Below, piece after piece: positions 19-33,229 of a stretch of 64,000 bases of DNA. The notes under the pieces are model-generated. The model was not told the origin of the DNA. It was given only the letters and a program-made list of their open reading frames with translations, and did not search any database. A program made the translations under genes and the position numbers. This stretch comes from Cyanidioschyzon merolae (Eukaryota). The first letter of the stretch is position 1, and every line of letters starts with the position of its first letter. Location: the NCBI GenBank assembly GCA_000091205.1, contig AP006492.2; one strand, written 5' to 3'.

Positions 19-169
19 GACGCAATGCCCCATTACTGCGGTGTTCTCAGAGCAAAAGCATCTGTCAGAGCGATGTCTACCAATCCAGGTTCGTTCGGGT
101 ATTTTTCCGGCGGTACGATCTGAGCAAATACGCATCTGTCTTATCTACATCCAGCACACCAGTGCCCTT

Positions 170-3100
170 ATGGATCTCCTTCCAGCGCTTTGCTTTTGTT
201 TGTTTCGACAGAGCCTGTTTTACTGACCAGACGCCGAGATTGCCGGATTGATACTTGTTTCGGAAAATCCTTCGTCACGCTGGACAATTTCGGTGATTTT
301 TGTCGCATTTACCTAATCTCGGCTGTACTGATTGTATCTGACTTTCTATCGTGCGCCGTTTACCTACCTTGAGCACCCGTTGTAGCCTCTCTATCGCCGC
401 TGTGGGTGCTCTCCGGAAGCAGGGCTGCTCTGACATACCACTGGGCGCGTTGGAAGGGGCTTGGTTCATGCTACATGGGATCAGGGAGATTTATTTTCTT
501 TGGAGCCTCCAAGCGGATCTTGCAGACGATTTGCATGCGGTAGCGTAAAACGGCGTACTATCTGTTCACCGCGACGGTGTTAGCGCTCAGACGCAGCATG
601 CCTGCTCCTAGTCCCGAAATTAATTGCGTTTTGGATGAGTTGCCCAAGTGTCTCATATCACTCTCCACTGAAAGTCACACGGAGGGCAGGCCGGTAGTCT
701 CGCGGCACGCAGACCTTCCGATTAAATGTAACACTTTGACCATACGCGAAATCATCTTCTTTACGTTTACACTAGGTTGCAATAGTACTTGCTATCCTGT
801 TTGTGCATATTGGTTAATTTTTTTGCATTTTCTCTGTCGTGCGTCCTGGTAACGCATCGCGAAATCTGGCCGTCACGTCACCCAACGTGCGCCTCTCCGA
901 TCAAGAAAAACGCGGTAATGACCTCTTCTGGAGCGACTGCTCTATCGGGGCCACTTGTATTTGCGATCGAATCGTAGCAAAGTATAGTTTTGGCTTCAGT
1001 GGCGTTCCAATCTTAAAGTAACTCTATTCACCAGATTCTCGCCGTTCAAAGCAGAAGCGTCCAATGAGATGTTCTCCCAAAAAATCTGACACTTATGTAG
1101 TATGATGTAGTGGGTTTGGGGTGGCCGGTGCTGCCGGGTGTCAGAATGAAATGAGACATATTGCCTAGCGAAGAGGGTCAGGAAAAGAAGAAGAAGCAAC
1201 ATGGGGGGCCTTACATCGAAGGCCGAAATTGTGACTTCTGTACGACAAGATGGTGGTGGAATCTTATCTTCTCCAACATATCAATGATCCGTACGACTGA
1301 TTGTTGCGAGACGCTATCAGAAACCGTGGCGGATCGTAGGCCGGGTATGTTTGGAGCTTTTCTTTAGGACGTTGGCATTTGGACAGCGACCTGCATCGGG
1401 ACGTAACGCTTATTGCGAAAATGATGTTTCCGGAAAAATTTTTCCAAAAGACTTTCATCAACTACCTGATTGTTTTTAATGGGAAAACATCGGGGATAAG
1501 TGAGCGAGTGCATGCCTTTCTCAAAAATTACGCCAAATTCCTCGTCTTCCGTGCTGAACACAGGGGTGACGCAGACATTTACGAATACAGGGCAAAGAGG
1601 TGCCTTATGAATGTGAGGAACCATAAAATGGCAAACCTCGATTGTTTCATGATACGCGTCGTCTTTGTGCTGTACCCGGGCACATTTCGCGAAGTGATGC
1701 TTGCAATCATCGATGGTATGAAGAACGATCGCCAGCATGGACAGGAGATCAGACTCGTCGACAAGAGGACATCACGCAGGATAATGAATGATGCTTCTGT
1801 AATTCGCGCCACTATTCTAAAACATCGTTCGGTCTTGGGTCATGTCAACCCAAGAGAAAACTCTCGGATATGAGAAACGACGGAGAGAGTTGTTACTCCC
1901 TCATCCTGCCCTGCTTCATGTTTTCGGTCCGAGACCTCGACCGCAGAGCCGACATGGGGCTGAGTGAGGAAAAAATGACGAGTGGGAGAAACGACATTGA
2001 AGTCTTCTCCAGATGCGCTTCAATGTCGGTCAGTTATGCGAGTCCAAGTCACATTTTGTGAGTAACCACTCCATAGTACTTCACGACTTCACGATAGAGA
2101 TTTGTCCAGAGCTCGATGTAATCAACAAATAGGTCTCCGGTGAAGATCGGGACGCCTACGAGAAGAATATCTTCGATTTCAAGCGTCCCGAACCGGCCAA
2201 AAAAAGTTTATTCACTGGAACAATCGATCTCGATGTGGCGCACATATGTGTACACCATCAGCGGTTGAAGGCAGCTCGTCCTATCCCGTCTTCGTTACGG
2301 GCGTTGCCGAAGAACGAACACAGGTTGACGGGCTATGGAACGTATAAGCCCCATGAAAACCACTTTGGCGTCGGCCTTAGTCCCTGGTGCACGAATATCA
2401 TAACCATCGCTGTTCCTAAGCGAAGGGAAGATTGCACTGACTGCACCTTACGTCACAAACATATGCTTCTGCTGAGGTTTTCGAGAGAGAGATACAATCG
2501 AGAATCCGGTATAACGAATGCAAGGAAGAAGATGGTTACGTGGAATGTAGGAATGAAGGATCACCTGGAAGCTTTGAGCGTGGTGACGAGCTGACGAGCG
2601 GACATTCAAGCTTTTCTGAAATTCATGGAAGTTCGTGTTGCTCATTCCGTGGCGCTGTAGGGCGAGTATACAAAGCACCGCTGGGCACGTTTGCGTATGA
2701 ATCTGTGCCGTGGTAAGCATCACGCATTCGCGAGCTTTTTCAATCGATTGAACGCCTTGAAATAGGATCAAGTCAGAGGCTCGTTGTTACATATGGTGTA
2801 GGGAGCTGGGCTCCGAAAAAAAGGGACTCCACCAGCTCCAACGGCAGGAATGGGCAAGGAGTGCGCACTGGGTCTCGCTACGGTACCTGTGGGTGGGTTC
2901 CGAACATCGTATACACACCACGAGTTGGGATGTACTCTTCAGAAGATGGAGATTGAAAAGTGCCCGCGGAGTCGTCATGATATAAAAAAGTAAGGGATAG
3001 CTGACGGGAGAGGAAATGGAAAGGAGGGAAGAAGCTCGTGGACTACTTGCATTAGTAAGTACGACTACCATCGGCAAGAAACGTATGGAGTTCGCGAACC

Positions 3101-3375
3101 GAGTCTTTAACGCTGCAATCAATCTACGGAGATGTGCGGGAATAGACAAAAGACTCCCAGCGGTGACACGAGAGTCCATTGTTGGACAACCTCTTAAACT
3201 GGAACTATATGAGAAACAATGGTGTCCGCAGTAGGTGGCCGGTCGAAAAAGGCGGGAAGGCGTCTGCACGTCAGTTGGCGACTTCTTGTCTAGGGCGCGG
3301 TTGCCGCCACTACTGTACACTGTCGGCAGCAACGTTTTTGTTTCGAAAGATGTTTGTTGTCGTCGGCTGCGGTGG
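170..3375 (+). mobile_element. Fanzor/TnpB-like element, copy A (most degenerate of the three long copies)
   Basis: Collinear DNA similarity to copies B and C over the left end, the ~1 kb non-coding leader, the decayed nuclease ORF and the 3' conserved block (ggcgtctgcacgtcagttgg ... ctagggcgcg ... gccgccactactgtacac). Boundaries are approximate (+/-30 bp), judged by loss of inter-copy similarity. Confidence 0.6.
1199..3330 (+). pseudogene. Fanzor/TnpB-like RuvC nuclease pseudogene (copy A); multiple frameshifts, an internal deletion and an in-frame TAG
   Basis: ATG at 1199 in Kozak-like context (aagaagaagcaacATGG), conserved with copy C. Fragments in three frames match copies B and C: RFNVGQLCESKSHF, TNIITIAVPKR (RuvC-I region), FRTSYTHHELGCTLQ, RMEFANRVFNAAINLRRCAG (RuvC-III). 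In-frame TAG at 2658-2660 where copy B has TGG. Confidence 0.55.
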
Positions 3376-4508
3376 TCTTACGAGACGTTTCGGTCTCAGA
3401 AGCTCTAGCCGACGCTTCCAAGACACTGCAATACCGTTCTGCTTTTGAAGCATAACCACAATAGCTGCGTACGGAACGTCTCGGTGCAAGTTTGCGGAAG
3501 GCAGGGCTTCCGAAGGAGCGCTGCATCAGCGCCTGTGCTGCATAGAGCGAAACTTTGTACCAGAATTTCTGGGACGCGAGAGGGACGTCAGAGAAGCTGG
3601 AGGCACATTCCTGTTCACTAGAAGCGCTGACGCGACTCGGACGTTTCGGCACGATTTCGCCTCTACCGCACTGAAGCGCTTGTGCAGCCGCTCTCAAGGC
3701 AGAAGCTGTGCCATCATACCTACCTCAGGGTATTCGGTTCGTTCCACTTGCATCGTTAGGTCACTGTTCGTACGTCGCTTTAAGGGTTTTATTCGTCGCC
3801 CATGCGTGCTGATGCACACTTCCGGCTCGTGTTTTCCAGATCCATACGCATAGAGCAAAGTCTGTCACGGTCATACTCGGAAACTAAGCCTTCGGCGCCG
3901 CGCCCAGGTTCGTGGAGCGTTGCGATGCCGTCCAGCCAACATCAGTGAACGTTAAATCATGGCATACTTTTATCCTGCGGTTTAGGATGGTTGACCTGAA
4001 CCAGGGAATCTCGGGTCAGGCGCGATACATATCGGCATCCGGGTAAGCGTACGTTATGCCGTACCAGACCCGCAACTTTCGCCAGCTTTCATCCACGCAT
4101 CGCTTTGGAGAATTTTGAGTCAGTTGATTTGATCCTTGTTCGCTGTTGCGGATGCGAACTCCAGCACATCCGGTATCCATGACACGACTAGCAGGTTTCA
4201 ATGATGATAGTAGGCGAACGCTACTCTGCAGCTGCAATTCTGGTGCCACCTTGTCCTTCAGCAATGCTGTCCATTTGGAACAAGCTCGCCGAGATGGTTA
4301 CGGACGCTCCCCTCCACACCTTTTGTACGGTGCCAAGACCTACCAGTTTGGCATAGGTATCCAGCATATCTCAGTCCTCCTTGTCCATCCGCTTATTTTG
4401 AGTACAGACCGAGCACGCTTGTGCAGAGCCCGCACTTCGACGAGGCATTTGATTAACGTCCCTGTAAACGATGCGCATCCAACGCGTTACCATGCGCAGG
4501 CAACATGC

Positions 4509-5585
4509 TCAAGATGCTTTCTTCGGCGTGCTCTGGAGTGCCTCTATACTGGATTGGAGGTCTTCTTTCTCGTCACTTTCCATGAACGGCAGTATTTGTA
4601 GTACTTCAACGACACCATTCCGACCTAGCACACATGGCAACGACAAGAATACATCCGCCGACTCGAGGCCTCGCAACGAGCCCGCATGCGTCGTTATTGG
4701 CAGCACTTTGCGCCGATCATGCACAATCGTTGTAACGATGCTTCCAACAGCGCTGCCAATGGCCCAGTTGGTGTAGCCTTTCAGCTTAATGACCTCGTAA
4801 GCCGCGGCTACAACTTGCTGATGGACACCTTTCACCAGATCATAGAATGCTGTGGACGCGCTCGCAGCGTCGGTCATGCGCTCGAAGCATGTTCGCAACG
4901 GTACGCCACCAACCGTAATACCACTCCGGTACACGAACGAGGAGTCTCCGTGCTCGCCCAGTACCATGGCCTGGACGGAAGCGGTATCGATGCCCAGCCG
5001 CTGCGCCAGAAGTGTGCGGAAACGCGAAGAGTCCAAATATGTCCCTGAGCCAATCACACGTTCGCGGGGCAAGCCACTCATCTGCCACGCTAGATGTGTC
5101 AGTAGATCAACGGGGTTACTCACAACCAACAGGATTGTGTTCTGCGAATACTGCACCAGGGGCGGAATAATGCCTTTGAACAATGCGGCATTGCGATCCA
5201 TGAGCTCAAGACGACTTTCTCCGGGCCGCTGACGCACACCTGCCGTTATAATACATACTGCCGAATGTGCTGTATCCTCGTAGGACTCGGCAGCCCGGAT
5301 GCGGGTGCTGTAGAACGCACCTCCATGCTGCAAGTCCATAACTTGACCCTTGAGTTTGTCCTTGAGAACGTCCACCAGTACCAGCTCACTACAAATATCT
5401 CGGGTCAAAATATTATAGGCGCAAGCAACGCCAACGTCACCAGCTCCAACCACGGTGATGCGGACGGGGTACGAACGTGCAAGCGCCGCACCCGGCGTGT
5501 CGATCGCAGGCGAGACCTCCCCAAAGAGACTTCCCTGAAGCTCAGCCGCCGCCTCGTCGATCCCTGACGTCGTTCCAAAGAGCAC
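4509..5585 (-). CDS. L-lactate dehydrogenase (LDH/MDH superfamily, LDH-type)
   Basis: 358 aa single ORF with Rossmann motif VVGAGDVG. The segment TAGVRQRPGESRL aligns to LDH Q102...R109. IGSGTYLDSSRFR and VLGEHGDSS are LDH signatures (catalytic His in EHGDS). Stop codon is TGA. Confidence 0.85.
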   Translation of the reverse strand: MLFGTTSGIDEAAAELQGSLFGEVSPAIDTPGAALARSYPVRITVVGAGDVGVACAYNILTRDICSELVLVDVLKDKLKGQVMDLQHGGAFYSTRIRAAESYEDTAHSAVCIITAGVRQRPGESRLELMDRNAALFKGIIPPLVQYSQNTILLVVSNPVDLLTHLAWQMSGLPRERVIGSGTYLDSSRFRTLLAQRLGIDTASVQAMVLGEHGDSSFVYRSGITVGGVPLRTCFERMTDAASASTAFYDLVKGVHQQVVAAAYEVIKLKGYTNWAIGSAVGSIVTTIVHDRRKVLPITTHAGSLRGLESADVFLSLPCVLGRNGVVEVLQILPFMESDEKEDLQSSIEALQSTPKKAS

Positions 5586-7774
5586 AGTTCCACGATTTGC
5601 TTCCTTGCCAGACAGATCCTCGAAAAAGTCCGACTACAGGTTTCAGATCGCCCGAGCTGCGGTGCAGGGTTGTTTCCAGCACTGGTGCCGAGATCGCTAC
5701 AAACCCGTGATCGTTTTGTTCTCCAGCACTATAGGCCTCGCCAAAACTAGGTACAGTGCTCTTTGATAACACAGCTGTCGGATCCACGAAGGTATTGCTT
5801 TAAGTCAGAGGGAACGCTCGAGACTGAGCGCCCCGAATAAATCATGCTATCCGTTGAGGACACAAAGATGCACTTGAGGGCTTTCGCGATCGCCCAGAAG
5901 CGCCTTCCGGAGATTCGATCCAGAGCGATGCGCGTCTCGATGACGAGTCCGCCTCGGGGCGTTTTTTTCTTTTTGATGAAAAAACGTTTGCATTGACAAT
6001 GCATCCCAGAATTTGGAACGCACGATGGCTTCCGGGGATATCTCGATCATAGTGCACCTGTCCTCAAGTCCCATTATCCATACTACCTCTCTGATATATT
6101 GGTCGTTTCGTATGTTCTATCGAGCGCCGAGCCTGTTGTGAGCACCCGCTGTAGCGCTTATACCGCTGAAGCAGGTGCTGCACAGAGACAGAACGGCTTT
6201 GCCATACCACTAAGGGCGTCCGCTCGAGGAATGATTCACCTGAAACGGAATCAGGGCTATTTGTCATTCTGGGAACATGCAAAATGCGCAGACAGACCTA
6301 CTACCTGCGACAGCGCGAAGTGCTGTACTAGGATTCCACTGCGACCAGTGCGAGGCCCAACGCAGCGTCCTGTGCATATTCTCAGGATAAAATGCGTTGT
6401 GAACGAGCTGCGCAGGTCTTGCAGCAGCAGCAGCAGCAGCGGCAGCGGCCACTTTAGAGGCATACCGAGCTCTAGCCCGGTAGACTCGACCGGCTCGCGG
6501 GACCTTCCGCCTCGAACATAAGCTTCCGATAATACGGCGATCTATTTCCCCTTAAACGCTTATCGTAGAGCGGGAAAAAATTTTATATCGTTTCTTGTAA
6601 ATCGTAGGTCACTGTCCTTTTTCCTGTATGGCGCGCTCGATACGTGCATCTCCAAGTATGGCACTTACGAGACACGACGCATCTGTCGCCTTTGAAGAGA
6701 AACGCGACCGTGACGACACGTTTTCTTGATGTTCTAACGGGCAAGCTGTATTTGCGTGGAAGTCGTAACAAAATATAGTTTCCAGTTCGATTGTGTCTCA
6801 ACCCTCAAGTAAACATATTCAATTGATTTCTCGCAGTATATAATAGAAGGGTTCAAAGAGCGTTCTTTTTCACACAAAAAAATGAAAAGAAAAGCTATGA
6901 AAAAGCAAGTTGACGATCCTGGAGGCCCAGTGTCGCCTGCTGCCAGAAATAAAAACAAAAAACAGAGCCGAGTCCAGAAGAACAGGAAAAGAAGAAGAAG
7001 CAAAAGGGGAGGCCCTAAGTCGAAGGCGGCAAGAAAGACGACTGTTCGACGAGATGATGGTGAAAGCCTGTCTTCTTAAACAAATCAAGCATCCTTACAG
7101 GGAAAATTTGCGAGACGCTATCAAAAAACGATTCGATTCGTACTCCATTGGTATTTTCAAGGCGTTGTCAAGACTGATGCATTTGGCGAGGGAGATGTAC
7201 GAAAACGTGGCGCACTTGGAAACGGTCGAGATTCCGGACGATTTTTTCGGTAAGACATTTATTCGACACCTAATGCTTGGCACAGCGGAAACGCGGAGGG
7301 AAAATGTGCTAGTGCATGGCCTTTACGAAAAACATCCCCTCTACAGCTTCAACAGTACTCTGTACAGGGGTGATTCGAATGTTTACGTATAAGGGGCGAC
7401 GAAGTACATCACGAAACTGTGGTTCACGTGATCGTGAAACTCGAACGTTTCATGATACGCGCCGTGTTTGCGCTGTACCCGGGTATCTCTCGCAAAGGAA
7501 TATGGGAGATTATCAACGGCATCAAGAACGATCGCAAGCATGAAGGTGAAGTCGAATTCGTCGACACGAAGGCGTTTAACGACAGCACGAATGATACTTC
7601 TGTAATCCATTCGGTTATACAAGAGCACCGTGCAATCTTGGGGCCGGCGAATCCAACAGACAAGACATCAGAGTTGAAAAAAGATAAGGAAAGATACTAT
7701 CGTCTTATTCTGCGCTATTTCATGTTTCTCGACCGAGAACTCGAGCGAAATGCGGAGATGAAGCTGAGTGAAGA

Positions 7775-7781
7775 AAAAAAG
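7775..7781 (+). other. Candidate -1 programmed ribosomal frameshift site: slippery heptamer A_AAA_AAG at the junction of upstream and downstream reading frames of the copy-B nuclease gene
   Basis: Frame-0 codons are gaa|aaa|aag (7773-7781). The downstream conserved frame (frame 2) opens after TGA at 7769-7771 and codes EDWERRKAVLMGKRFNVVPM, conserved with copy C (EELGRRKAAIVGKRF). The upstream frame ends at TAA 7809-7811. Copies A and C change frame by -1 at the same place. Confidence 0.35.
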
Positions 7782-8128
7782 AAGATTGGGAGAGACGGAA
7801 GGCTGTCCTAATGGGTAAGCGCTTCAACGTGGTTCCAATGTGCAGCATCAAGTCACATTTCGTGAATATCGATTCGGACGTGTTTTACGGCATCATGAAG
7901 GAGATCAGTCCAGTGTTCACTGTTATCAGGGATGACTTCACCGGTGAAAACCGGGCGACGTACTTGAAGAACATCTTCAATTTCAAACGGCTCAAAGTGA
8001 GAAGCCAAAAGGTATTCACTGCGTTGATCGAGACCGATGGAGTAACCTTGTATGTACACTATCGGCGCTTGAAAGTGGACCGTCCGATTGTGCCTTTCGC
8101 TTCGCCCTCTGCGAAGCATTAAAAAATC

Positions 8129-8428
8129 AAAGAAGCGGATCCTGCGACACAGGAGGTGCAGGATGACGACTTTGTCGCTGACGCGGTGAAGGATGAAAAA
8201 GAGAAAGAGGCGGAACCTGTGATGCAGAAAGTGCAGGATAACGACCGTGTCGTTGGCGCGGTGAAGGATGAAGGTCAGAAGGAGGCGGATCCTGCCGAAC
8301 AGAATGTGCAGGATAACGACTTAATGGTTGACGCGACGAGGCATCAAGGAAAGAAAGAGGCGGATCCTGCCATACAGGAAGTGCAGGATAAAGACATTGT
8401 GGTTGGCGCGGATCCTGGGAACACGAAT
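8129..8428 (+). repeat. In-frame 75-bp tandem repeat, 4 units, inside the copy-B nuclease ORF just upstream of RuvC-I
   Basis: Units encode KEADPATQEVQDDDFVADAVKDEKE / KEAEPVMQKVQDNDRVVGAVKDEGQ / KEADPAEQNVQDNDLMVDATRHQGK / KEADPAIQEVQDKDIVVGADPGNTN. Copy C has a single unit (YEKEADPAIQKLQDSDFVVGLNPWNTN). Confidence 0.8.
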
Positions 8429-10585
8429 ATCATCACCATCGCAGCACCGAAGCGTGCGGAAGATGGCATGGACGGTAATTTACGCCAGAAAGACATGCGT
8501 CTGCTGAGGTTCTCGAGAGCGAGATACCATCGAGAATCCGTTGTAGTGAATGCAAGGATGATAATCGTTACGTGGAATGCAGGAATAAAGCATCACCTGG
8601 AAGCTTTGAGCGAGGCGACGAGCCGCGGAGCGGTCTATGAAGCTTTTCGGAAATTCATGGAATTTCGTGTTGCCCATTGGGATGCGCTGTGGGAGGAGTA
8701 TAAAAAGCCCCGGTGGGCTCGTCTGCGAATGAATCTATACGGTGTGAAGCAGCGGGCGTTTGCGAATTTTTTCAATCAGTTGAGCGCCTTTGAGGGGGAT
8801 GACCGTCAGAGGCTCGTAGTAGCGTATGGAGCAGGGCGCTGGAAGAACAGAAAAGGAACTACGCCAGCTCCAGCGACGAAGCTGTACAAGGAGTGCGCCC
8901 GGCGTCTCGTTACGATACCTGTATATGAGTTCCGGACGTCCTATACATACCAGGAACTGGGCTGCACGCTTCAGAGGGTAGAGATGGAAAAGTGCCAGAA
9001 GAGCGCTGAGGAAATTGCAAAAGTACGGACCGCTGGCGGAGGAGCAACTGTAAAGGAAGGCGAAAGTTCAAGGGTTACTCGTATTGGTGAGTACAGCTCC
9101 CAACGGCACGAAATGTATGGAGTTCGTGAACCGAGATTTTAATGCCGCTATCAATATACGGAGATGTGCGGTGCTGGAGAAAAGACCTCCAGACTGGACA
9201 CAAGAGGATTTTATTGGACAACCTCTCAAAGTCGAACTATATGAGAAAAAATGGAAGCAGACGTTGGTGGCCGGTCCAAAAAAACGGGGAGGCGTCTGCA
9301 CGTCAGTTGGAGACCCCTTGCCTAGGGCGCGTTCGCCACTACTGTACACGGCCGGGGGCAACGTTTGTCTTTTGAGAGGCGTTCGGTGCGGGCGCGTCAC
9401 GTCGCTTATTCAGAACGTATTTGCGAAGAGTACCTAGAGTATATGTGGTAATAGTTGATGCTTTTCGTGAAGATATTGCTGCCATGGCTGTAACAGGACT
9501 GATGTGACAGAAAATGTGGAAAATGGGCAACTCGAGTTCTTCTGTATTCGATACATCATCCGCTGCCTTGTCGTTTATCTATCTTCCGAGGGTCCTGTGT
9601 CCATTTATTAGCAACGGATCCGTTTACCAATTTGTTTGCAATGATATAGAACAAGATCAATTGTTTAGAATCGATACTGGCCGCTTCTAGAATGCCTCCA
9701 GCTGTGCTCAAGGTGCTGTGGTAATGCTTACATAGCGTACAGCTCGTCTCAGGATGTGACTGCCTGGCATGATGTGCCTCTGGACCGAGTAACGGTAACT
9801 GCGCATCTACGTCTTCACGGCTTACCACCACTTCGTTCTCGTTTTTTTCTAGTGTACAAGACATAAACATAATCCGGAAATCAGCACAACACTTCAGACG
9901 GTTTTATGGACGTAGCCTACGAGCAACGGTAGGCAACAGTGGTGAATATATCGAGACGATGCCTCGACCGCCAGAACAAGCTATAAGCACTTTCAATGTT
10001 AGAGCTATAAGTGCGCTGTGAGGCTGGCGGCCCTGCTTCCATTCGTGCCAAGCGGAGCCGGAGCCCGTAGGCAGGCGTCACGAATATTAGCTTTTCCTCA
10101 AGAGGAATCGGATTTTGGTGAAATTTGCGGTTGTACGGATCGAGTCAAATTTGCTCCAGAACCTCTCCTCAGGACTAGAATGTGCTCAAGTACAACGAAA
10201 CTCAAAAAACAGTTCCAGACGCTCTACTGCAGACATACTCGCTACATGCAACTCGGAAACCGTATTCCGACTACAAAGAGAAGAAAGGGTACCAAGATAC
10301 CGCCATTACCACCAAGGCTATCATCGGGGGCAAGCTCATAGGCATAGGTAATCATTCCTTTACGTTCCAAAAGCAAATTCTGGTCCATTCTTTCTGTTCA
10401 TCAGATCTCTGAATGTCAGCCCCCGAAGAGGACCTCAGATGACACTTCGCGCACAAATATCCACATTAACGCATTCGTTCATTCGTACTCTCGGGTCTTG
10501 TGAACATGAGTGGAATATTGTCGCAACAGAGGATCAGCATAGACGTGATCTAGACTGTGGGCAAATTAACAGTTGAAACGTTCGC

Positions 10586-13500
10586 TCACGCAGTCGGTGG
10601 AGCTGAAGATGTCGCTGATTCCGAGGCGCTCGCAGACGTCGACACAGAAGCTGAAACTGAAGCACTCGCTGATGCACTCGTTGATGCACTCGCAGACACC
10701 GTCGCAGAAGCTGTCGCAGAGACTGTTGCAGACACCGTCGCAGAGGGTGCCGCTGTCACAGCCACGGGACTCGGAGTCGGTGTTGAACTAATCACCACAC
10801 ACTGGTTGTTGATGCACTCCTCGTCAGCGCGGCAGCAACGCACCTTGCTCACAAGGTTATCCGAAGGGATCAGGTACGTCCCGCACTGCTTCGTAGGGTC
10901 CTTGCACACACAGAATGACGGCAGCAGCACCTGTTGTTGCTGCTGTTGCTGCAGTTGCTGCTGCTGCTGCTGGTTGTTGTTGTTGCTGAACGGGTTGTAC
11001 GTGCAGTTCTGCGTCTCGGCGTTGCAGCACTCGGGGCCGCAAGCAATATAGCTCGAGTTCGATACGTTGCTAGTGGTGCCGCTCAGCGAGTTCGACACAT
11101 ACCCGTAGGTCTGGCACACGTACTCGGTCATCGGCTGGAAGCACTCGTTGCTGAGCCCCAGGCAGCAACCAGCCTCCAGACACTGCTGTGGCGAGTAGCT
11201 CGTGCGCTGCGTCCCGTGCTGCTCTCCGTACAGGAGCGTGTTCAGCAGACGCACAAACTGGTTGTTGTTGATGTTATTGTTCAGCTGCTGGTTCTGATTC
11301 ACCGCGTTCGTGCACGGCTGGCGCTCAAACTCGCCCACCGCGCACGTCTTCTCGGGCTGGAAGCAGTACGGGTTCGACTCAAAGTCGCTCTGCTGCTTGC
11401 CGTTCTGCACCCACTGGTTCTGCGCCTGCGAGTCGTAGCAGCAGCCCTGGGCATAGCACGTAAACTGGTTGATACCCGCGTTGCCGCACGGCTGGCGCTG
11501 CGCTCCCGGTGACGGGCAGACGGGTACTGGTGCCTGCACCTCCTGCAGCGCTACAGAGGCCTGCGGTGCATGGTTGATGTCGTAGTAGCACCAGGGTGCC
11601 AGGATGCCGTTTGCCGTTGGCTGCCAGCAGCATCCCGGTATCGCAGTGCACTCGTCGGGATAGATGTAGCTCCAGCCGCAGGGGACGCGCTGCGTCACTG
11701 GAACAGCGCTGCACGCCGCTGAGACGCTCTTCAGGGTGCACGCGTTCGTCTGGGAGTTAAAGCAGCACCCGACTTGCTCGCAAGCGTCCTGGTTTGTGTA
11801 CTGGCCCGGAGAACCGCAGATTTCACTCGTGCAAACTGGTGTTGGCGTTGCACTCGGTGTCGGGGTTATAATAGCAAGTGTCGCACCAGAGGGTAGAATT
11901 GTAGAAAGCTGGTCGGTGAAAGTTTGAAGCACACTTTGCAGTTCACTGGCGAGGGATGTGTCTCCTGAGATCTTAATCACATAGGTCACAACACTGCCGC
12001 CCGAAGTGCGCACCAATGCTCGTTCCAGACGAAGATTGCTCTTGTCTAATGTGGTGGCGAGGCGCCTTGATGTGCCCGAACCGAAGACCGTGTCGCAGTT
12101 ATCAGTCACGCTGACATTCACTACCTGGCCCGTGAAGCGAGCCTCGAGATCGTTCTGCAAATCCGTCGCCACGGCCAAACAAAGAGAAAGATTCTGAACG
12201 GATATCGCAATCGAGGTGGAAATCGTCGTCGGCACGATTGTTGGTGACGTTGTTGCAGTTGGAGTCATCGTCGGCGTCATCGTCACTGTCGTTGGAGACT
12301 CTGTTACAGTAATCGTTGGCGATGATGTAATTGTCGGAGTCATCGTCGCAGTCGGTGTCGGTGTAGGTGTAGGTGTAGGTGTCGGTGTCGGTGTCAGTGT
12401 AGGTGTCGGTGTCAGTGTCGCAGTCGGTGTCGCAGTCGGTGTCGCAGTCGGTGTCGGTGTCGGTGTCGGTGTCGCAGTCGGTGTCGGTGTCGGTGTAGGT
12501 GTCAGCGTGGGTGTCGGGGTCGCAGTAGCAGTTGGCGTAATCGTTGGTGTCAGAGTTGGCGTTGATGTTGGCGTAGGCGTAGGGGTAGGCGTAAAGAACG
12601 TTTCACTCAGTGCGAAAACATCATTGAGATAGCCAGGAATGCTAGTGTTTGAGTATCCAAATCCGCCAAACATGACCGGATCAGTCCCACTTGTGTTCCA
12701 GAAAACTGACCCAGTTCGACCGCCAGGCGAAACACTAGGGCTGGTCTTATTCAAAAATCCATATACGGAAAGTGCAAATCCATTTTGGCTGCCATTGATC
12801 CACGCCCACTGACCCAGTGTCATATCAAATACCCACAAATCGTTCAAATCACCGGGGCTCTCACGAGTATTCCCATATCCTTCACCACCAAAAAGTAGCA
12901 GATTACCCAAAGAATCCACGAAACTCACGCCTGAGTCTCTTGCACCAGGGTAACTGGTTGGGGCGAAAGCACCGAGACTTCCATAAGATCCTGGATTGTT
13001 AATAGTGGTATTCCCTGCGATAAAAATCCATACAGATTGACTTATGTTGTAGACCCAGAGATCATTCAACTTCCCTTGTCCTGGTGCTGTGCTGTCGCCG
13101 TAGCCAAGACCACCGAACATCCAGAGATTTCCTTCAAAATCTGTCCAGGTATTCGCGACGATGCGCGCACCTGGTGCACTCGAATTGTTCGCCACGCCAG
13201 GTGCGCTATAGTTGCCAGGCTGGTTAGCAAGTTGTGATCCGCCTCTGTATGCCCATTGCAGTGTAGTGGGATTAAATGACCACAGATCGGAGACAGAATC
13301 CCCAAGATTATTTTCACCACCAAACAACCAAAAAGTACCGTCAGCACCCAACCAGAATGATGCACTGCCTCGGGACCCAGGATTGTAGGAAGGACCAAAG
13401 ACGCCCTCCGCTCCATATATCGTGCCGGCATTTACCGTATCATTCCCGCTGACCCAAGTCCAGACTCTGCTTTCTGTATCGTACATCCACATGTCGTTCA

Positions 13501-14011
13501 TGGGGCCAAAGTTTGCATTCCGATCATAACCGAGGCCACCAAACAACCAGAAATGCTGCTCGTCCATCTGCCAGTACGCGCTTCGATAACGACTGCCAGG
13601 TGTATTGGCTGGGCTGCCTGTGCCGACTGTGCCGTACACTCCTGGTTGGTCGGCTTCTGAGGAACCTCCTATCCACGTCCATTCATGTGAGGTCAAGTTG
13701 AAGGTCCATAGATCATTAAAGTAGCTCAGATATGGGTTTCCACCCCCAACCCCGCCAAACAAGTATACCAAGCTCGAACTTCCGACCCAGGCTGCAGAAT
13801 CGTAACGGCCACCTGGAACACTATCTGCTGAAGTCTGGTTCAGCGTTCCATAATTACCAGGATTATCTCTACCCGTCTCTCCACCTATCCAGGTCCAGCT
13901 AACCGTACTCACAGGCGACAACGCAGCTACAAGCGACACGGAAAACGTGGCCGCCAACAATAGACAAACAGCAACAACCAGGCCACGTACCAGAGAGCGA
14001 GCTCGAAACAT
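10586..14011 (-). CDS. Secreted multidomain protein: signal peptide, Kelch/galactose-oxidase-like beta-propeller repeats, Thr-Pro-rich mucin-like linker, 3-4 trefoil (P-type)-like Cys domains, polyQ, and a Ser/Ala/Val-rich tail
   Basis: 1141 aa single ORF. The N-terminus [30 protein letters not shown] is signal-peptide-like. Recurrent ...YLFGG / WLFGG ... NDLW(T/S/V)F blades indicate Kelch repeats. (TPTPTP...)n lies at about 12240-12600. Trefoil-like modules show R-x-x-C-G-x9-C-x4-C-C-[YFW] ... P(W/Y)C(F/Y): [23 protein letters not shown]...APWCYY and [22 protein letters not shown]...NPYCFQP. Confidence 0.7.
12240..12600. repeat. Low-complexity (ACN-CCN)n coding repeat (Thr-Pro linker); mirrored on the plus strand as the spurious (GV)n ORF 12216-12632
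   Basis: gtcggtgtcggtgtaggtgt... periodicity; encodes [11 protein letters not shown]... on the minus strand. Confidence 0.8.
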
Positions 14012-18061: not shown

Positions 18062-18363
18062 CGACTAAAGTCGTTCGCGTACGCATACATTTCCAGGGAG
18101 AAATCTCTTTTTCGTTGCTGCACGAGTGATCGCCCATCAATTGCGCAGAGTCCGACTTGTAACTCCCGTAGACTGTCTAGCGTTGAGCGCATCGAGCACA
18201 AGCGCTCAATGTCTTCCACAGAGACTAGGCGAAACTCGCGGTTTGCCGTGCAATAATCTCGTCAGTACTGGTAACTCAGTGCTCCGCATTGTTGCGCTCA
18301 GATAGCGCAAAGATCGTAGTGGCACGATGCTGCACCCCGGGGTACGGCGCCGCGGACACGCAA

Positions 18364-18530
18364 GGGAATTCCCTCCGGCGGGATGATTTCGGTGCATACG
18401 CATCTGGTAAGGCGATGGTTCGAACAGCAGAGCCATTAGGGAATTCCCTCCGGCGGGATGATATCGGTGCATACGCATCTGGTAAGGCGATGGTTCGAAC
18501 ACCAGAGCCATTAGGGAATTCCTTCCGGCG
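18364..18530. repeat. 75-bp tandem repeat (about 2.3 units) abutting the 5' end of element copy C; the unit shares its first ~17 nt and a ggttcga(a)cag motif with the element left terminus
   Basis: Units start at 18364 and 18439 (gggaattccctccggcgggatgat(t/a)tcggtgcatacgcatctggtaaggcgatggttcgaaca(g/c)cagagccatta). A third partial unit gggaattccttccggcg runs directly into the element (ttatgcttttttggttcgacagaacgtttctactgacc). Confidence 0.8.
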
Positions 18531-21500
18531 TTATGCTTTTTTGGTTCGACAGAACGTTTCTACTGACCATGCATCCCATGTTTCCGGGTCGATATTGGCT
18601 TTCGGGAAAGCGTCCATCATGTTGGACTACTTCTGCACGTTACATCGCTTTTGCTTACTCTCTGCTGTACTGGTCGTCTCATTTTTTCTATTGTGCGCCG
18701 GTTGCCTGCCATGAGCACCCGCCGTAGCATCTCTATCGCTGGTGCGGATGCGCTACGAAAACAGAACAGCTTTGGCATACCACTGAGCGCGTCGGAAGAG
18801 GCATTGTACAAGCGATACGGAATCAGGGCTATGTATATTTTTGGGAGCCTCCAATCTGGACAGGCTGACCTTCTGCCTGTGGTAGCGGGAAGCGGTATTG
18901 TAGGATTCCTCCGCAACCAAGGTGATGCCCAGACCCAGTATACGCGCTCCTAGTGCCAAAATCAAATGCGTTTCGGACGAGGTGCTCAGGTGCGTCACAT
19001 CACCCACCACCGCAGAGTCACACGGCGTACAAGCCGGTAGAGTCTCGCGGCTTGCAGACCTCGCGCCTAAAAGGCAACTGTTTGACCAAACGCAAAAACA
19101 TCCTGCTTTGAACGTTTATTGTAGATGGCAATAGAACTTGCTATTCCGTTTGTGGATATTGGTTAGTTTTCGGCATTTTCTATTTCGTGCGCCCTGGCAA
19201 CGCATCTCGGAATCTGGCCGTCACTTCACACGACGTTCTTCTCGCCGATGATGCGAAACGCGGTAATGACCTCTTTTGGAGCTATCGCTCTATCGGGGCC
19301 AGTTGTATTTGCGCTCGAATCGTAGAGAAGGATAGTTTCGGCTTCAATTGTGTTTCATACTTCATGTAAGGATATTTAAGTGATTTCAGCCGTTCAAAGC
19401 AGAAGCGTCCAATGTGTTCTCCCCCAAAAAACAAAAGGTAGACTCATGTAATTGGAAGTAGAGGGTTTTGGATGGCCGGTGTTGCCCGAAGTTAGAAGAA
19501 AACGAGGAACAGTGCCTCGCAAAGAGAAACAGGACAGGAAGAAGAAGCAAATGGGGGAGGCCTTTTGTCGATGGCTGCAAGAGTGACGTCTCTACGATGA
19601 GATGGTGGTGGAATCCTGTCTTCTTCGACGTATAAAGGATCCGTACGAGGGAGAGTTGCGAGACGCTATGAGAAACCGTGTCGACTTGTACTCCATGAGT
19701 ATTTCCAAAGCGTCGTCACGACTGATGCATTTGGCGAGGGAGATGTACGAAAACGTGGCGCACTTGGGAACGGCCGAGATTCCGGCGATTTTTTCGATAA
19801 GACCTTTATTCGACACCTGATGCTTGCCACAGCGGAAACGCGGAGGGAAAATGTGCTAGTCCATGGCCTTAACGAAAAACATCCCTTTTACAGGTTCGAG
19901 GCTACTCGATACAATGCTGACCGGGATATTTACATGTACGGAGCGATGAAGTATATCACGAACCTGAAGAATCTTTTGGCAGTGAACCTCGAACGTTTCA
20001 TGATACGCACCGTGTCTGCACACTGCCCGGGCATCTCTCGCAAAGGAGTATGGGCGATTATCAATGGCATCACGAACGATCGTAAGCGTGAAGATGAGGT
20101 CGAATTTGTCAGGGAGAAGGCGTCATGCAGGAGTACGAATGGACTTCTGTAATCCGTGCGGCTATACAAGAGCACCGCGCAGTCTTGGGGTTGGCGAATC
20201 CAACAGACAAGATGTCAGACTTGAAAAAGATAAGGAAAGATACTATCGCCTCATCCTGCACTATTTCGTGTTTTTAGACCGTGAACTCGAACGCAAGGCA
20301 GCGATGAAGCTGAGTGGGGAAAAAATGAAGAGTTGGGGAGACGGAAGGCGGCCATAGTAGGGAAGCGCTTCAACGTGGTTCCAATGCGCAACATCAAGTC
20401 ACAATTTGTCACCATCGACTCCAGAACCCTTCATGGCATCATGAGAGAGATCAGTCCCGAGTTCAATGTTAACAGGGCGGAGGTGACCCGTGAAACCCGC
20501 GAGACGCACTGGAAGAATCCCTTCGATTTCAAACGTCACAAAGTCAGCAAACAAAAGAAATTCACCGGGATGATCGAAACCGATGGATTAGCCATGTGTG
20601 TACACTGTCGGCGGTTGAAGGCAAATCGTCAAGTTCCGTCTTCGATATTGCCCGTTACGAAGCATGAATATGAGAAGGAGGCGGATCCTGCGATACAGAA
20701 ACTGCAGGATAGCGACTTTGTCGTCGGCCTTAACCCCTGGAACACAAACATTATAACCATCGCTGTACTAAAGCGTCCGGAAGATTGCACCGACGGCAAC
20801 TTACGTCAGAAATATATGCGTCTTCTGAGGTTCTCGAGAGCAATATACAATGGAGAATCCGGTATGATCAATGCAAGGAAGAAAATCGAGACTTGGACTT
20901 CAGGAATGAAGGATCAAATGGAAGCTTTGAGCGAGGTGACGAGCCGCGGAGCGGACTTTGAAGCTTTTCTGAAATTCATGGAAGTTCGCATTGCGCATTG
21001 GGATGCGCTGTAGGAGGAGTATACAAAGCCTCGGTGGGCTCGTTTGCGTGTGAACTTGTACTGCGGGAAGCAGCGTGCATTCGCGAACTTTTTGAATGAA
21101 TTGAGTGCCTTGAAGAAGGATGAAAGTCAGAGGCTCGTAGTATCGTATGGGGCAGGACGCTGGGCGTCGAAGAAAGGGACTACACGTGCTCCAACCACAA
21201 GACCGTACAGGGAGTGTGCACGACGCTTCGTTACGATACCGATAGATGAGCTCCGAACATCGTATACTCACCATGAACTGGGACGTACACCTCAAAAAGT
21301 CGAGATGGAAAAGTGTCAGCAGAGCCCTGAGGATATAAAAAAGTACGGACCGCTGACGGAGGAGCAAATGGAAAGGAAGACGAAAGTTCGTGGACTCCTT
21401 GCATTAGTAAGTACAACCAATAATGGCAAGGAACGTATGGGGTTTGTGAACCGAGACTTTAACGCCGCCATCAATATCAGGAGATGCCCTGTGATGGAAA

Positions 21501-21718
21501 AAAAAAGACCCCCAGAGTCGACACGAGAGAGAATTCTGTTGGACAACCACCCAAAGTGGAACTATATGAGAAAAAGCTGGAATAAGTCGTACGTGGCCGG
21601 TCCAAAAAAACTGGGAGGCGTCTGCACCTCAGTTCCAAACGTTCTGACTAGGGCGCGTTTGCCGCCACTGCTGTACACCGCTGGCGACGTTCGACTTTAG
21701 AACAGCGTTGATGGTGCT
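18515..21718 (+). mobile_element. Fanzor/TnpB-like element, copy C
   Basis: Collinear with A and B across leader, ORF and 3' block. The right end (...gcgacgttcgactttagaacagcgttgatggtgctgcg) is shared with fragment E up to ...gttgatg(g/a)tgct and ends within about 4-8 bp of the WD40 gene ATG (21722). Confidence 0.65.
19551..21700 (+). pseudogene. Fanzor/TnpB-like RuvC nuclease pseudogene (copy C)
   Basis: ATG at 19551 (caaATGGGGGAGG). In-frame TGA at codon 12. Frameshifts near 19815 and 20100, plus the family-wide -1 junction at about 20320. In-frame TAG at 21011-21013 (copy B has TGG). The C-terminal part is continuous: IDELRTSYTHHELG...GKERMGFVNRDFNAAINIRRCPVM (RuvC-III). Confidence 0.6.
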
Positions 21719-30200: not shown

Positions 30201-33200
30201 CGAGGGCGACTAAATCCGTTGAGCAAGTGCATCCAAAGGCCGAGCAAGCTCGTTCGTCCTTTGCCTCCACACTATCGTTCGCTGAGTAGCGTCATTGCGA
30301 CGAGCACTCCCCGCGGCACACGACCTCCTTCTCCGCGTCATACATGGACTCTAAATGTCTGTAATGCTTTCGCTGATTGGACAGAAATGCAGACAAGCCA
30401 GGTACGCAATGAGCGGCAGAATTGACGGCCCCGGCCCCGCAGAGCACGATGCATGCGCTCTTAGTACGCTGCAAAGACTGGCGACCTGAGACCTCCAGCG
30501 CAAACGAGATTGGAGGCTTGTAGGTGTTCGCGAACCCAAGCGAGCGCTGCCCAGATGCTTGCTGTCGCTCGAGGCCCGCACCCCTGATACGTAGAAGGGT
30601 GTGCACGATCGGTCTAGCAGCGAAAGCATTGCGTCCGAACCGCGCTCAGTGAGGCCGCCAGCCAGCGGGTACGCAACCAGTTATACGCAGGACCTCCAAC
30701 GATCACCGCAAATTCCATGCATGAGATGAGAGAGCTCCGGCGTTCTACTTCGTGTTCGGATATAGCGGCCAAGAGAAGCACCAAAGATGCTGCACATGAA
30801 GAGACGCCTTAGCGCGCACGCAAGTTGGCCAGCGGATCCGTCCGCGTTTGCAAAGTAGCTGATAGCGTCGCGACGCTTTTCGAAGCCGCTCCAGTAGACG
30901 CAAGGTCCCTAGCGAAGAATGCCCTATGGCTACTCGGGAGACATGAATCTCCGGGAGGCACACTAGCCAAGAGGCTTGCTCATTCACGTACTCAGCGAAA
31001 AGAAAACAAACTGCCCGCGTTCAGCGCAAGCTCATGGTTTTCGCAGCGATCGCGTTTCGCGTATCGTCAACGTGCATTCCGCAACGGTAGTGACCCGCCA
31101 CCACTCCTGTTACCGCTCTCAAGGCGAGCTTCACAACTGTTGCTTGTCGGGTATCGTACGCGACCGCACCGGAACGACCTGGGACTGACTGCTGACAAGT
31201 CCATAAGCTCAATGGCCGGAACTCTTCAAATGGTGAGTCTCTCGAAGTTCACCCCATACATGAACACGCAATTGTCGTCTCCCAGGGTCCGATCCCGCAT
31301 TCGATGCTTCTGTGCAGCTCGAGCACATCACTCGATCCAGCCCTGCAATCGGGCAATAGTTTCCAGACAGTCCAGTATTACCTCCTGTTGCTCTTCTGCC
31401 TTCGCATCAGACTCCAAGAGCGCCCGGAAACGTGCCGTGGGGCGTGTCTCGGCGAAACGTCGGCGACATTGTGGAGGCTTCTCATGAAAAACCACAGCGC
31501 TAGCGACGCTCTCCGATATATTGGATTGTGCAGCAGCACTCCCAGGCCTATTTCTCTCGAAGCATGCCTCGTTTCCCGGTAAAACGTCACGCGAACTTGA
31601 GGGCTGACCAATAGAGCTCGCGGGCCCCGCCCGCTCCCTGGGGGTTACCGACGAAGACGTGCTGGCAGCCTCAGTCGAGTTCCGCGCTGCTGCTTCACTA
31701 GTCTCTGCGTCGAGACGTGGCCACCGCCGCCGACGCTCCCTGAGATACGCATCCAGCACCTCAGGTGGTGCGTCTCTGGTTGGAGGCTGAGGCATCGTCC
31801 CGCCGGCGCCGTGTGGCTTGCGGCCTGGAGGCCACCACTGCGGACCAGCGCCTCCGGCACAGCCCCGTCGCCAGCGCTGCTGTAACCCGCTCTCCGTGGG
31901 CATACGGAGCGGTCTCCGAACTTAACAAGGGCCAATACACGCCTTACGAGATCCACGGACGACCCTGAGGCGGCAAGTCTCGTCCAAGGCGACTGCTGGT
32001 CATGGAAAACTGCTCCGGCGGAATCACACGTTTGCGTCAACGAACCGCCGTATAGATTGCAAAGCAAGCGTCACCTCGGCGTTACCTAGGAAAGCAACGT
32101 CTGACTGTAAACGGGTTTCTTTCTGGCGGGCCGTTTCCGACCTGCCAACAGCGCTAACGAACGAAAATCTATAGCGTTGCTGTTGCGGCAGGATCTATGC
32201 ACCTCTTTCGTAGATGGGATGGAGCCTCTTTCATGACCTCTTCATGGGCTTTCCGTTCAAATTGTTCTGCAACAAGGTACGTTGAGCAGCAGAAGATGGA
32301 CTTCAATATGCAGTGTACTCTATAGATCGTAGAAGAATTGCTTGTAGGATACACATTCTTTCCTGAAGAGTTCCAGGAGAACTCGAATTCTCCTTCGGAT
32401 GAGTCTTAACACAGTACACAGATGCGTGATTCACACGGAAAGAAAGAATCAGATGCGCTCCGCTCCAGAAACCGATATTTTCAGAGACTTTTTGAGGTCA
32501 CTGGTAGAGAACAACTGATTGATCGCTATAGAGAAAACCCGAGCGGCGAGCATGGACACCACGGGAGTCTCTGTTTCTCAACAGCTCGTTCCCGGGATCC
32601 TGAAAACACTGGGATACAGTCGGAAAAATGAATCCTATTTCAAGCACGGCCGTCTTGCACGGAAATCGCAACGGTAGCATTCCTGGAAAGCCGCTATCCG
32701 GAGAAAGCACCGGAACGTCGGTTTGTTTTTCAGTCGATGACACTTGCTTCGGATGAAACGGTCAGAACGTATATTGGTAATCGCGGAGACAGAGCATGTT
32801 ATCTGTACGAGTGAGCTCGAAGAGAACAAAGATATCATCATCGATTCTAGCTAGAGTGGATACACTCGGCGGCGTCAGTCGCGCTCGTGGAGCAGGCTCG
32901 CTCGACAGCACCCATTGGCCTAATAATTGAATACTTTTCACCTGAGGTCTGGTGACGTCCTTCTATTGAACAACGTAGCATTTCGCCATCCACTTGCGGT
33001 TGGGATTCTGCCGATTCGATCAAGGGTTAGAGTAGCTTTCCATTCCTGCGCACACTCCATGTTTCAACCCTATTGCATGAGTGTTTTCTATTGTGAATCC
33101 TATTGATCGCTTCAGTGGGCAAATCGCAAAATCGCTCTGTACAGGGTGACACTCTGGCACATGGTGTCTTTCATCCGCATTGACCATCTCCTCCGGCAAG

Positions 33201-33229
33201 GCCCTCATATAAGGGTATATAGAAGCGCG

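Follow-up and report, generated by a model that had tools for sequence, protein, structure and literature searches.

Fanzor proteins were divided into two types, Fanzor1 and Fanzor2, by Bao & Jurka (2013, Mobile DNA 4:12), who recognised one Fanzor1 family, CMe-1A, in the alga Cyanidioschyzon merolae. As described there, CMe-1A comprises about 150 copies that are about 80% identical to a consensus of about 3 kb, some of the open reading frames (ORFs) being still intact. The family has no terminal inverted repeats (TIRs), its target-site duplications (TSDs) were left undetermined, and its 5' 635 bp are 95% identical to a separate element, TE-N2_CMe (Bao & Jurka 2013). The repeat had already been catalogued as a "3.2-kbp novel interspersed repetitive element" with a mean length of 3.2 kbp, present in 253 copies across all chromosomes and accounting for about 5% of the C. 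merolae genome; it is transcribed, and its truncated ORF showed weak BLASTX similarity solely to WSV486 of white spot syndrome virus (Nozaki 2007). Rhodophyta Fanzors were also recorded by Jiang et al. (2023). The subject of the present analysis is a stretch of 64,000 nucleotides of C. merolae contig AP006492.2 (referred to as a whole as the window), the repeats of which we assign, with a probability of roughly 93%, to CMe-1A: three are dead copies and two are short chimeric derivatives.

The CMe-1A family and its Fanzor1 identity are already published, and we claim no new discovery. An earlier reading of the letters of the window (the sequence-only reading) had proposed a decaying, transposase-less family of TnpB/Fanzor-like RuvC nuclease elements; since Fanzor1 CMe-1A was already described, that reading was right and the find is not new. 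As a discovery it carries little weight, the repeat having been catalogued in 2007, assigned to Fanzor1 in 2013, and Fanzors having been demonstrated as RNA-guided nucleases in 2023. We document the repeat structure, the Fanzor1 homology by profile and fold, the placement of the catalytic motifs, pseudogenisation, the conservation and folding potential of a 3' block, and the lack of a transposase. Four points go beyond the 2013 description: the 3' block with its terminal hairpin, a degenerate zinc finger, modular 5' ends and chimeric derivatives. Their value is practical, in that they supply the exact right end of CMe-1A and a concrete omega-RNA candidate, evidence that the CMe-1A clade is without the canonical zinc finger, and an intact metagenome relative that could be assayed for activity, while the modular 5' ends and chimeric derivatives bear on how transposase-less Fanzor1 elements move.

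Fanzor1 identity and decay of the window copies

Self-comparison of the window by BLASTN revealed three collinear plus-strand copies of about 3.3 kb, here called A, B and C, that are 65-78% identical to one another, and two short pieces at 33243-33487 (plus strand) and 63398-63850 (minus strand). Positions 156-3320 of copy A match 18499-21678 of copy C at 71.7% identity over 3213 bp, positions 6087-8177 and 8336-9383 of copy B match copy C at 73% and 78%, and copies A and B are 65-76% identical. The extents of the copies were set by alignment with 56 other 3' junctions, giving about 35/100-3362 for A, about 5900-9391 for B and 18363-21717 for C, close to the coordinates previously proposed for three plus-strand copies of about 3.2-3.5 kb. 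The three-way MAFFT alignment is collinear throughout except at one place in B (8129-8411), where a 75-bp tandem repeat has expanded by 225 bp. The majority consensus of A, B and C yields a reading frame of about 750 codons with two frame switches only, which makes the copies pseudogenes derived from a single long gene.

All three copies are disrupted, with tblastn splitting them over two to five frames, in agreement with the proposal of a decaying family; an uninterrupted ORF with an intact catalytic triad is found in none of the three. Copy A (CMe-1A, 35-3362, plus strand) is the most decayed, with a Fanzor-homologous coding part at 1208-3234 that ends in the native TAG stop (3232-3234). Copy B (5900-9391, plus strand), the copy at the centre of the sequence-only reading, has its coding part at about 6964-9262 and keeps the D, E and D of the triad; its ORF is interrupted by three or more frameshifts and by an in-frame stop, and no longer ends in the native stop codon. 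This copy is 80.1% identical over 2729 bp to an intact relative, L001. Copy C (18363-21717, plus strand) keeps E and the second D, the D of RuvC-I being replaced by N, and carries frameshifts and stops, its native TAG stop having become TAC. Among the copies transitions are about as frequent as transversions, which indicates ordinary old decay; mutation resembling repeat-induced point mutation (RIP) was considered as the cause of the divergence and rejected on the same grounds.

Outside the window, 71 related loci were recovered in varied contexts on metagenome contigs (L001-L072, from the Joint Genome Institute (JGI) metagenomes Ga0080006, Ga0078972, Ga0207433, Ga0209012, Ga0123519, JGI24721J44947 and JGI20133J14441). 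Almost all of the 71 are pseudogenes, and of the fetched loci L001 alone retains the full ORF with D-E-D. With five pieces in 64 kb and these 71 further loci, the family has a multi-copy, transposon-like distribution in a eukaryotic genome. The same metagenomes contain C. merolae-like algal contigs of up to 176 kb, about 85%-100% identical to strain 10D and rich in members of the CMe-1A family, a resource ready for presence/absence and covariation analyses.

Scanning the ORF pieces and the stitched consensus with Pfam and NCBIfam gave only a sub-threshold match to PF07282 (the TnpB/Cas12f TNB domain, E=0.09-0.25) spanning the NAAINI motif, and a single-sequence phmmer search of PDB with the consensus returned nothing relevant. 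Such direct searches being too weak, profiles based on homologues were needed. A search of a large protein collection with the consensus identified 72 relatives, among them an intact protein of 752 aa (P0001, 68% identity) and full-length relatives at about 30% identity. One distant relative (P0072) scores 27.5 bits against PF07282, above the Pfam threshold, and has a full CxxC...CxxC finger. When the profile built from an alignment of 17 homologues of the consensus (A1) was searched against all PDB sequences, it recovered the Fanzor1 proteins (Fz1) of Parasitella parasitica (PpFz1, E=2.2e-31), Spizellomyces punctatus (SpuFz1, E=2.3e-27) and Guillardia theta (GtFz1, E=1.1e-20); no Fanzor2, TnpB or Cas12 chain appeared at E<=1, and the one other entry (E=0.31) is unrelated. 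The motifs DPG, DEFRTS, GLLxC and NRDxNAAxN are aligned motif to motif with the Fanzor1 structures. The wider family is large, the profile search at full depth collecting 8,118 representative clusters at E<=1e-3.

The predicted fold agrees with the profile. The AlphaFold2 model of P0001 has a mean predicted local distance difference test score (pLDDT) of 75.6 and a predicted template modelling (TM) score, pTM, of 0.70. Foldseek comparison of the model with PDB returned seven Fanzor1 cryo-EM entries (SpuFz, PpFz and GtFz) as the seven best and sole significant matches (E=2e-16 to 8e-14; TM-score up to 0.69 normalised to the target), with Cas12 chains at E>0.02 only. By profile and modelled fold, the CMe-1A protein is a Fanzor1 with a predicted WED/REC/RuvC/TNB architecture. 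The TnpB/Fanzor-like nuclease reading of the decayed ORF is thereby borne out, including by the profile search from a frame-corrected consensus (E=2.2e-31 to 1.1e-20) that had been suggested as its check.

Alignment A1 contains three invariant columns of particular relevance, D484 (GxDPG), E656 (DEFRTS) and D725 (NRDxNAAxN). These align with D383, E541 and D606 of SpuFz1, the active site of which consists of D383, N385, E541 and D606 (Saito 2023), so that the motifs fall on catalytic positions, a further check that had been proposed. D484-P-G486 aligns with D383-P-N385 of SpuFz1, and the spacing from the Glu to the RuvC-III Asp is 65 positions in this alignment, as from E541 to D606. The motifs cited in the sequence-only reading are present in the right order in all three copies. 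RuvC-I lies at 2373-2402 in A (GLSPWCTNII), 8405-8434 in B (GADPGNTNII) and 20726-20755 in C (GLNPWNTNII), DPG being kept in B and reading SPW in A and NPW in C; RuvC-II is at 2895-2912 in A (GFRTSY), 8927-8944 in B (EFRTSY) and 21248-21265 in C (ELRTSY); and RuvC-III is at 3097-3117 in A (NRVFNAA), 9129-9149 in B (NRDFNAA) and 21449-21469 in C (NRDFNAA), extending to NRDFNAAINI in B and C and to NRVFNAAINL in A (all plus strand). A DPG motif together with a C-terminally shifted RuvC-II Glu about six residues before the zinc finger has been described as the unique mark of Fanzors and pro-Fanzors (Yoon 2023). The Glu beside TS, previously interpreted as this shifted glutamate, fits that signature as well as the SpuFz1 active site of Saito 2023, and the canonical upstream RuvC-II position, as read from the sequence, is VVAYGAGRW, without Glu.

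The CCCC zinc finger is not found in CMe-1A, which reads TSYTHHELGC...RGLLALVST and keeps no more than one of the four Cys. The first CxxC site is without Cys in 80 of 114 full-length relatives. The degeneration of the finger is a clade-level variation, and is outweighed by the profile and fold evidence for Fanzor1 membership. One detail of the sequence-only reading needs correcting: the K/R-rich peptide KNRKRRRSKRGGPKSKAARK (ORF 6882-7079) that had been taken for a nuclear localisation signal is in frame 0, while the frame homologous to intact P0001 at that point is frame 1. The in-frame N-terminus is itself basic, with KKNRK...RRRRQER in P0001 and KRxRPDRxEKLxxRK in relatives. Upstream of RuvC-I in copy B, the 75-bp tandem repeat (8129-8411, plus strand, 3.8 units) encodes an acidic repeat of about 25 aa, KEADPA.QKVQDND..., of which A and C have one unit and P0001 about four. 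The region is predicted to be disordered (pLDDT <50 at residues 374-471 of P0001).

The 3' block, the terminal hairpin and a candidate omega-RNA

To define the right end of the element, an alignment was made of 56 distinct 3' junctions taken from the window and from the 71 related metagenome loci. In most copies a TAG stop stands directly before GTGGCCGGTC, so that the following block of about 90 nt, up to CACTACTGTAC, is non-coding; the stop is mutated in B and C. This conserved non-coding block, a candidate omega-RNA scaffold, lies at 9263-9349 in B, 3229-3320 in A and 21588-21678 in C, and is followed by a linker, the terminal (subterminal) hairpin and a final ~8 nt (9350-9391 in B, 3321-3362 in A, 21679-21717 in C; all plus strand). 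Homology runs about 50 bp past '...CACTACTGTACAC', through the hairpin, and ends about 8 nt after GGCGTT (at 3362 in A, 9391 in B and 21717 in C), the flanks diverging directly after GGCGTTnGnnG. The block had been called the most DNA-conserved part of the element across all five pieces. It is indeed the sole segment common to all five, with a three-way identity of 0.69, but the highest conservation is found in coding sequence (B 8456-8700, 0.73-0.78).

The terminal hairpin occurs in two sequence versions, CGTCGTTCGA-CTT-TCGAACGGCG and AACGTTTTTC-TTTT-GAAAGGCGTT, both of which pair, and has a median folding free energy of -17 kcal/mol. The 3' block can be closed by a stem between CAGUAGU, which contains the stop codon, and ACUACUG about 90 nt downstream, with the hairpins CCGGUC/GACNGG, (GAGG)CGUCU/AGACG(UUUC) and GGCG/CGCC nested within it. 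In this hand-built structure 82% of cells pair in register, compared with 35-57% when the strands are slid; two of its helices, H2 and H3, are possible alternatives to each other. The blocks of L001, the locus with the intact ORF, and of L044 fold much better than shuffled sequences (z=-4.2 and z=-4.4, respectively, with 0 of 200 shuffles as good). Published Fz1 omega-RNAs combine an SL1 stem-loop with further, variable ones and carry their guide on the 3' side; they are encoded in conserved non-coding DNA that extends as far as the right end (Saito 2023, Jiang 2023), and the layout of the 3' block agrees with their position and general shape. By analogy with these RNAs, it is plausible that the block is an omega-RNA.

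An intact CMe-1A element would be a single-gene, transposase-less unit encoding a Fanzor1 of about 750 aa, predicted to have a basic N-terminus, REC and WED domains, a variable acidic insert, the RuvC D-E-D in the Fanzor arrangement (DPG; Glu by TS; NRD) and a degenerate zinc ribbon. Directly after the stop codon would come a conserved, structured non-coding block of about 125 nt and a terminal hairpin, together reaching the right end. If CMe-1A behaves like characterised Fanzor1 and TnpB systems, this 3' region would be transcribed as an omega-RNA, with the sequence beyond the right end supplying its 3' guide. The ribonucleoprotein might then cut matching DNA adjacent to a target-adjacent motif (TAM), aiding persistence or spread by homing or repair, and mobility would be supplied by a trans-acting factor. 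The right end of copy C lies 4 bp upstream of the ATG (21722) of an RBBP5-like WD40 gene (BAM80159), and this junction is present in metagenome contigs that are 99.7-100% identical (L073-L080); if copy C made an omega-RNA, the guide would consist of the first codons of the RBBP5-like gene. The omega-RNA nature of the block, RNA-guided cleavage and the mode of spread are drawn from the characterised Fanzor1 and TnpB systems, and taken alone, the omega-RNA and homing mechanism appears to us somewhat more probable than not.

Several results weigh against this functional proposal. Covariation in the proposed helices, for which a check across copies had been advised, is not significant (0.095 versus 0.086 in shuffles, with 18 of 500 shuffles as high), as the columns barely vary, and RNAalifold applied to the raw MAFFT alignment of the 56 3' ends predicts four pairs only. 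The 3' blocks of the window fold worse than those of L001 and L044 (z=-2.3 for A, -0.8 for C and +0.2 for B), B and C being no better than shuffles, and a scan of the whole window at Rfam gathering thresholds gave no match; no tRNAs were found in the window either. At the protein level, copy A has lost all three catalytic residues (D to S, E to G, D to V), no window copy being functional, and with the canonical CCCC finger absent, even the intact relatives can be called only putative nucleases. A TSD or TAM was sought at the 5' junctions and flanks, where no common motif was found and the core joins at least four different upstream modules. Finally, no empty site was found: contigs with the orthologue of the gene beside copy C belong to the same species, match the window at 99.7-100% identity and have copy C inserted as well, and a relative about 85% identical (L004/L035) also has Fanzor-family sequence at the orthologous site.

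A bolder extension is that the CMe-1A lineage represents a large Fanzor1 clade without the CCCC finger, whose few intact members (such as L001, with a stop-to-stop ORF of 819 codons) would be active RNA-guided nucleases using the scaffold of about 125 nt, and whose ORF-less derivatives would be guide-only 'ghost' elements served in trans. We consider this tentative and rather unlikely. C. merolae is a thermoacidophile, and if the extension were true, the enzyme could be a naturally heat-tolerant compact editor.

Upstream modules, chimeric derivatives and chromosomal setting

The shared coding core begins near consensus position ~780, and upstream of it stand at least four recurring alternative modules and some unique sequences. 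The 5' terminus of copy C is a 75-bp tandem repeat (18363-18530, plus strand; 2.2 units at 96% identity, unit AGGGAATTCCCTCCGGCGGGATGAT...), and degenerate 75-bp units are found at the start of A (about 35-196) and B (about 5895-5965). Next in copy C is a 5' non-coding module that begins TTTTTTGGTTCGACAGAACGTTT (18531-19200, plus strand), with equivalents at about 197-850 in A and about 5966-6640 in B; going by its description, it probably corresponds to the 635-bp TE-N2_CMe of Bao & Jurka. Most related copies do not have this window-type module, which is also found alone at other places. Several 5' modules start with TTTTTTCAxTGACAAAACGTTTAC, the ACGT-centred core of which (TGACAAAACGTTTAC) is similar to the 5' arm of the hairpin at the 3' end (GACAACGTTTTTC). 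The sequence GGGAATTCCCTCCGGCGG was considered as a general element terminus and rejected, being seen at copy C and at the orthologous site in L004/L035 only. Within the 75-bp units of copy C, at 18436 and 18511, is the sequence CCATTAGGGAATTCCC, a palindromic GGGAATTCCC flanked by CCATT; it faintly resembles halves of the telomere repeat placed head to head, which may be coincidence.

At the site orthologous to window position ~18364, the ~85%-identical relative carries a mini-element (L004:894-1029 and L035:1205-1340), in which about 20 bp of 5' terminus (AAGGAATTTCCTCCGG) run straight into the final ~105 bp of the Fanzor right end. Its make-up suggests a derivative formed by internal deletion; a further full core copy lies about 760 bp beyond it.

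The sequence-only reading had listed two 3'-end fragments. Both are present, at 33 kb on the plus strand and at 63 kb on the minus strand, but they are not plain truncations, both carrying a common upstream module of their own that is fused to Fanzor at about aa 665. The first is part of a 1.35-kb repeat unit without a long ORF (32288-33635, plus strand), the 3' part of which (33243-33514) consists of the last ~85 Fanzor codons, with NRGVNAA at 33428-33448, and the start of the RNA block; this unit recurs in L010, L013, L030, L056 and L058. The second (63398-64000, minus strand) contains Fanzor codons 665-752, with KRDLNAA at 63662-63642, as well as the complete 3' block and terminal hairpin, and its upstream module runs off the end of the window. 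The two share about 200 bp of upstream module, fused at the same codon, and this arrangement recurs in L057, L069 and L030. The short pieces are recurrent chimeric derivatives.

No transposase ORF was found in or next to the copies, nor in the consensus, which upholds the view that the elements are non-autonomous. Specifically, no TnpA transposase of the Y1 or serine type, as carried by IS200/IS605 or IS607, occurs in the copies, the consensus or near the intact relative. A hidden transposase was sought in the stretch of lower GC content at 27-35 kb, which yielded just the 1.35-kb repeat without a long ORF. At the aligned ends there are no TIRs, a short ACGT-centred motif alone being common to both.

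The window corresponds to the left end of chromosome 10 (10L) of C. merolae 10D, as it starts in telomere repeat and contains exact matches to 10D proteins, two of its ORFs being identical to BAM80159 and BAM80166. It begins with CCCCCCATTCCCCCATT, the complement of the unique C. merolae telomere repeat AATGGGGGG (unit taken from Nozaki 2007), at positions 1-17; by inspection, positions 1-34 comprise about two units of CCCCCCATT, the reverse complement of AATGGGGGG, and then degenerate CCCCATT units. The degenerate 5' tandem units of copy A start within about 35 bp of the telomeric repeats, so that a Fanzor element adjoins the 10L telomere, and copy A was possibly truncated by it. The ORFs around the copies are those of ordinary eukaryotic proteins and of plastid-related ones, among them Tic22, NOT2/3/5, Rgp1 and oxidosqualene cyclase. 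The 2.5 kb between A and B (3363-5900) contain a minus-strand ORF of 358 aa (4509-5585), with no match in the 80 fetched loci. An intergenic 77-bp tandem repeat at 36085-36383 (3.9 units, about 75-80% identity) is unrelated to the Fanzor family. The hexamer GTCGGT is repeated about 29 times at 12351-12522, within minus-strand ORF 10586-14011 (1141 aa, Kelch/trefoil domains), which makes it a low-complexity tract that encodes a repeated dipeptide. At 10657-10988, in the same region, there are shorter repeats of 9 and 12 bp, and a 45-bp match to 44081-44125 is a simple coding repeat of the same kind.

Alternative readings and comparison with known systems

The main live alternative concerns the role of the 3' end, and is compatible with an omega-RNA role. 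The block and terminal hairpin could be cis-acting DNA transposition signals, i.e. the right end recognised by a transposase, as with the subterminal hairpins of IS200/IS605, and not, or not only, an omega-RNA scaffold. The sharp stop of homology about 8 nt past a strong hairpin is what such a signal would look like, as are the likeness between the ACGT-centred start of the 5' modules (TGACAAAACGTTTAC) and the 5' arm of the hairpin (GACAACGTTTTTC) and the retention of this right end by the short derivatives; the lack of significant covariation in the RNA fold points the same way. However, neither the copies nor their immediate surroundings encode any kind of transposase, and the G-U-compatible changes and stable folds of well-preserved copies fit RNA. 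As the right end and the omega-RNA coincide in TnpB/Fanzor systems, DNA and RNA roles are not exclusive. We regard the DNA-signal reading as possible but doubtful.

The remaining alternatives concern the origin or fate of the copies, and all are unlikely. Subtelomeric segmental duplication, or decay of a host gene family, would account for three copies that all point the same way and lie no more than 22 kb from a telomere, in a species whose chromosome ends share duplicated elements of up to 20 kb, and for a divergence that is high and not RIP-like (transitions about equal to transversions). It is nevertheless very improbable, given that similarity ends at defined points with unrelated flanks, that derivatives lie far from the telomere at 33 kb and 63 kb, and that there are 71 further loci in different contexts and 253 reported copies on all chromosomes. 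Equally improbable is that the ORF is the remnant of an integrated gene of a large DNA virus, similar to WSV486 of white spot syndrome virus, and not a cellular transposon. Fanzors are common in large double-stranded DNA viruses, and WSV486 was the only BLASTX similarity in Nozaki 2007, but the virus is itself listed with one Fanzor1 in the same table as CMe-1A (Bao & Jurka 2013), so the similarity most likely reflects family membership and not viral origin; moreover, no other viral genes flank any copy, the neighbours being ordinary algal genes, and the number of copies and their defined ends are as expected of a repeat element. Slightly less remote, though still improbable, is domestication of some members, whose protein or RNA would serve the host, for example at chromosome ends. 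Intact ORFs do persist in an old family at about 80% identity to its consensus (Bao & Jurka), the elements are transcribed (Nozaki), copy A adjoins the telomere, and the intact relative keeps both D-E-D and a well-folding 3' block. On the other hand, every window copy is a pseudogene, as are nearly all of the 71 loci, there is no conserved single-copy locus in synteny, and a few intact copies are also expected of a slowly active selfish element.

The assignment to CMe-1A, which we prefer, is in keeping with the published family. Like the CMe-1A of Bao & Jurka 2013 and the 3.2-kbp repeat of Nozaki 2007, the window copies come from the same organism and consist of a unit of about 3 kb with a TnpB-like ORF; nothing in their identity sets them apart, and they are members. 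Also shared with the published CMe-1A are the lack of TIRs, a separable 5' module of about 635 bp, and mostly dead copies with few intact ones. To that description are added here the candidate omega-RNA fold, the exact position of the right end, four or more alternative 5' modules found in related strains, chimeric families of 3'-end derivatives, the degenerate zinc finger and a telomere-adjacent copy.

Among characterised proteins, SpuFz1 (PDB 8GKH, 9CEU-9CEZ), PpFz1 and GtFz1 are profile and fold homologues with the same RuvC layout (DPx...E-x-x-TS...NRD) and aligned catalytic residues, although identity to CMe-1A is only about 12-16%, and that in structural alignment. SpuFz1 has 30-nt inverted repeats and, like TnpB, a CCCC zinc finger (Saito 2023), whereas CMe-1A is without TIRs and its finger is degenerate (TSYTHHELGC...GLLALVST). 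Unlike SpuFz1, CMe-1A also has an acidic tandem-repeat insert before RuvC-I, and its activity is predicted only. SpuFz1 is multi-copy and has Fz-less 'ghost' derivatives that keep the ends, to which the chimeric derivatives of C. merolae are comparable in spirit. In SpuFz1-type Fanzor1 elements the omega-RNA is at the 3' end and reaches the right end, and the candidate 3' block of CMe-1A is similarly placed.

TnpB of IS200/IS605 elements (e.g. ISDra2) belongs to the ancestral RuvC nuclease family, to which the window pieces show the weak PF07282 similarity given above (E=0.09-0.25). CMe-1A differs from TnpB in having no TnpA, a eukaryotic host and a larger protein with an extended REC domain, in having DPG in place of D-hydrophobic-G, and in its RuvC-II Glu, which has moved about 50 residues toward the zinc-finger position. 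TnpB of ISDra2 has its guide RNA at the 3'/right end together with a subterminal hairpin, and it is there that CMe-1A carries its candidate block and hairpin.

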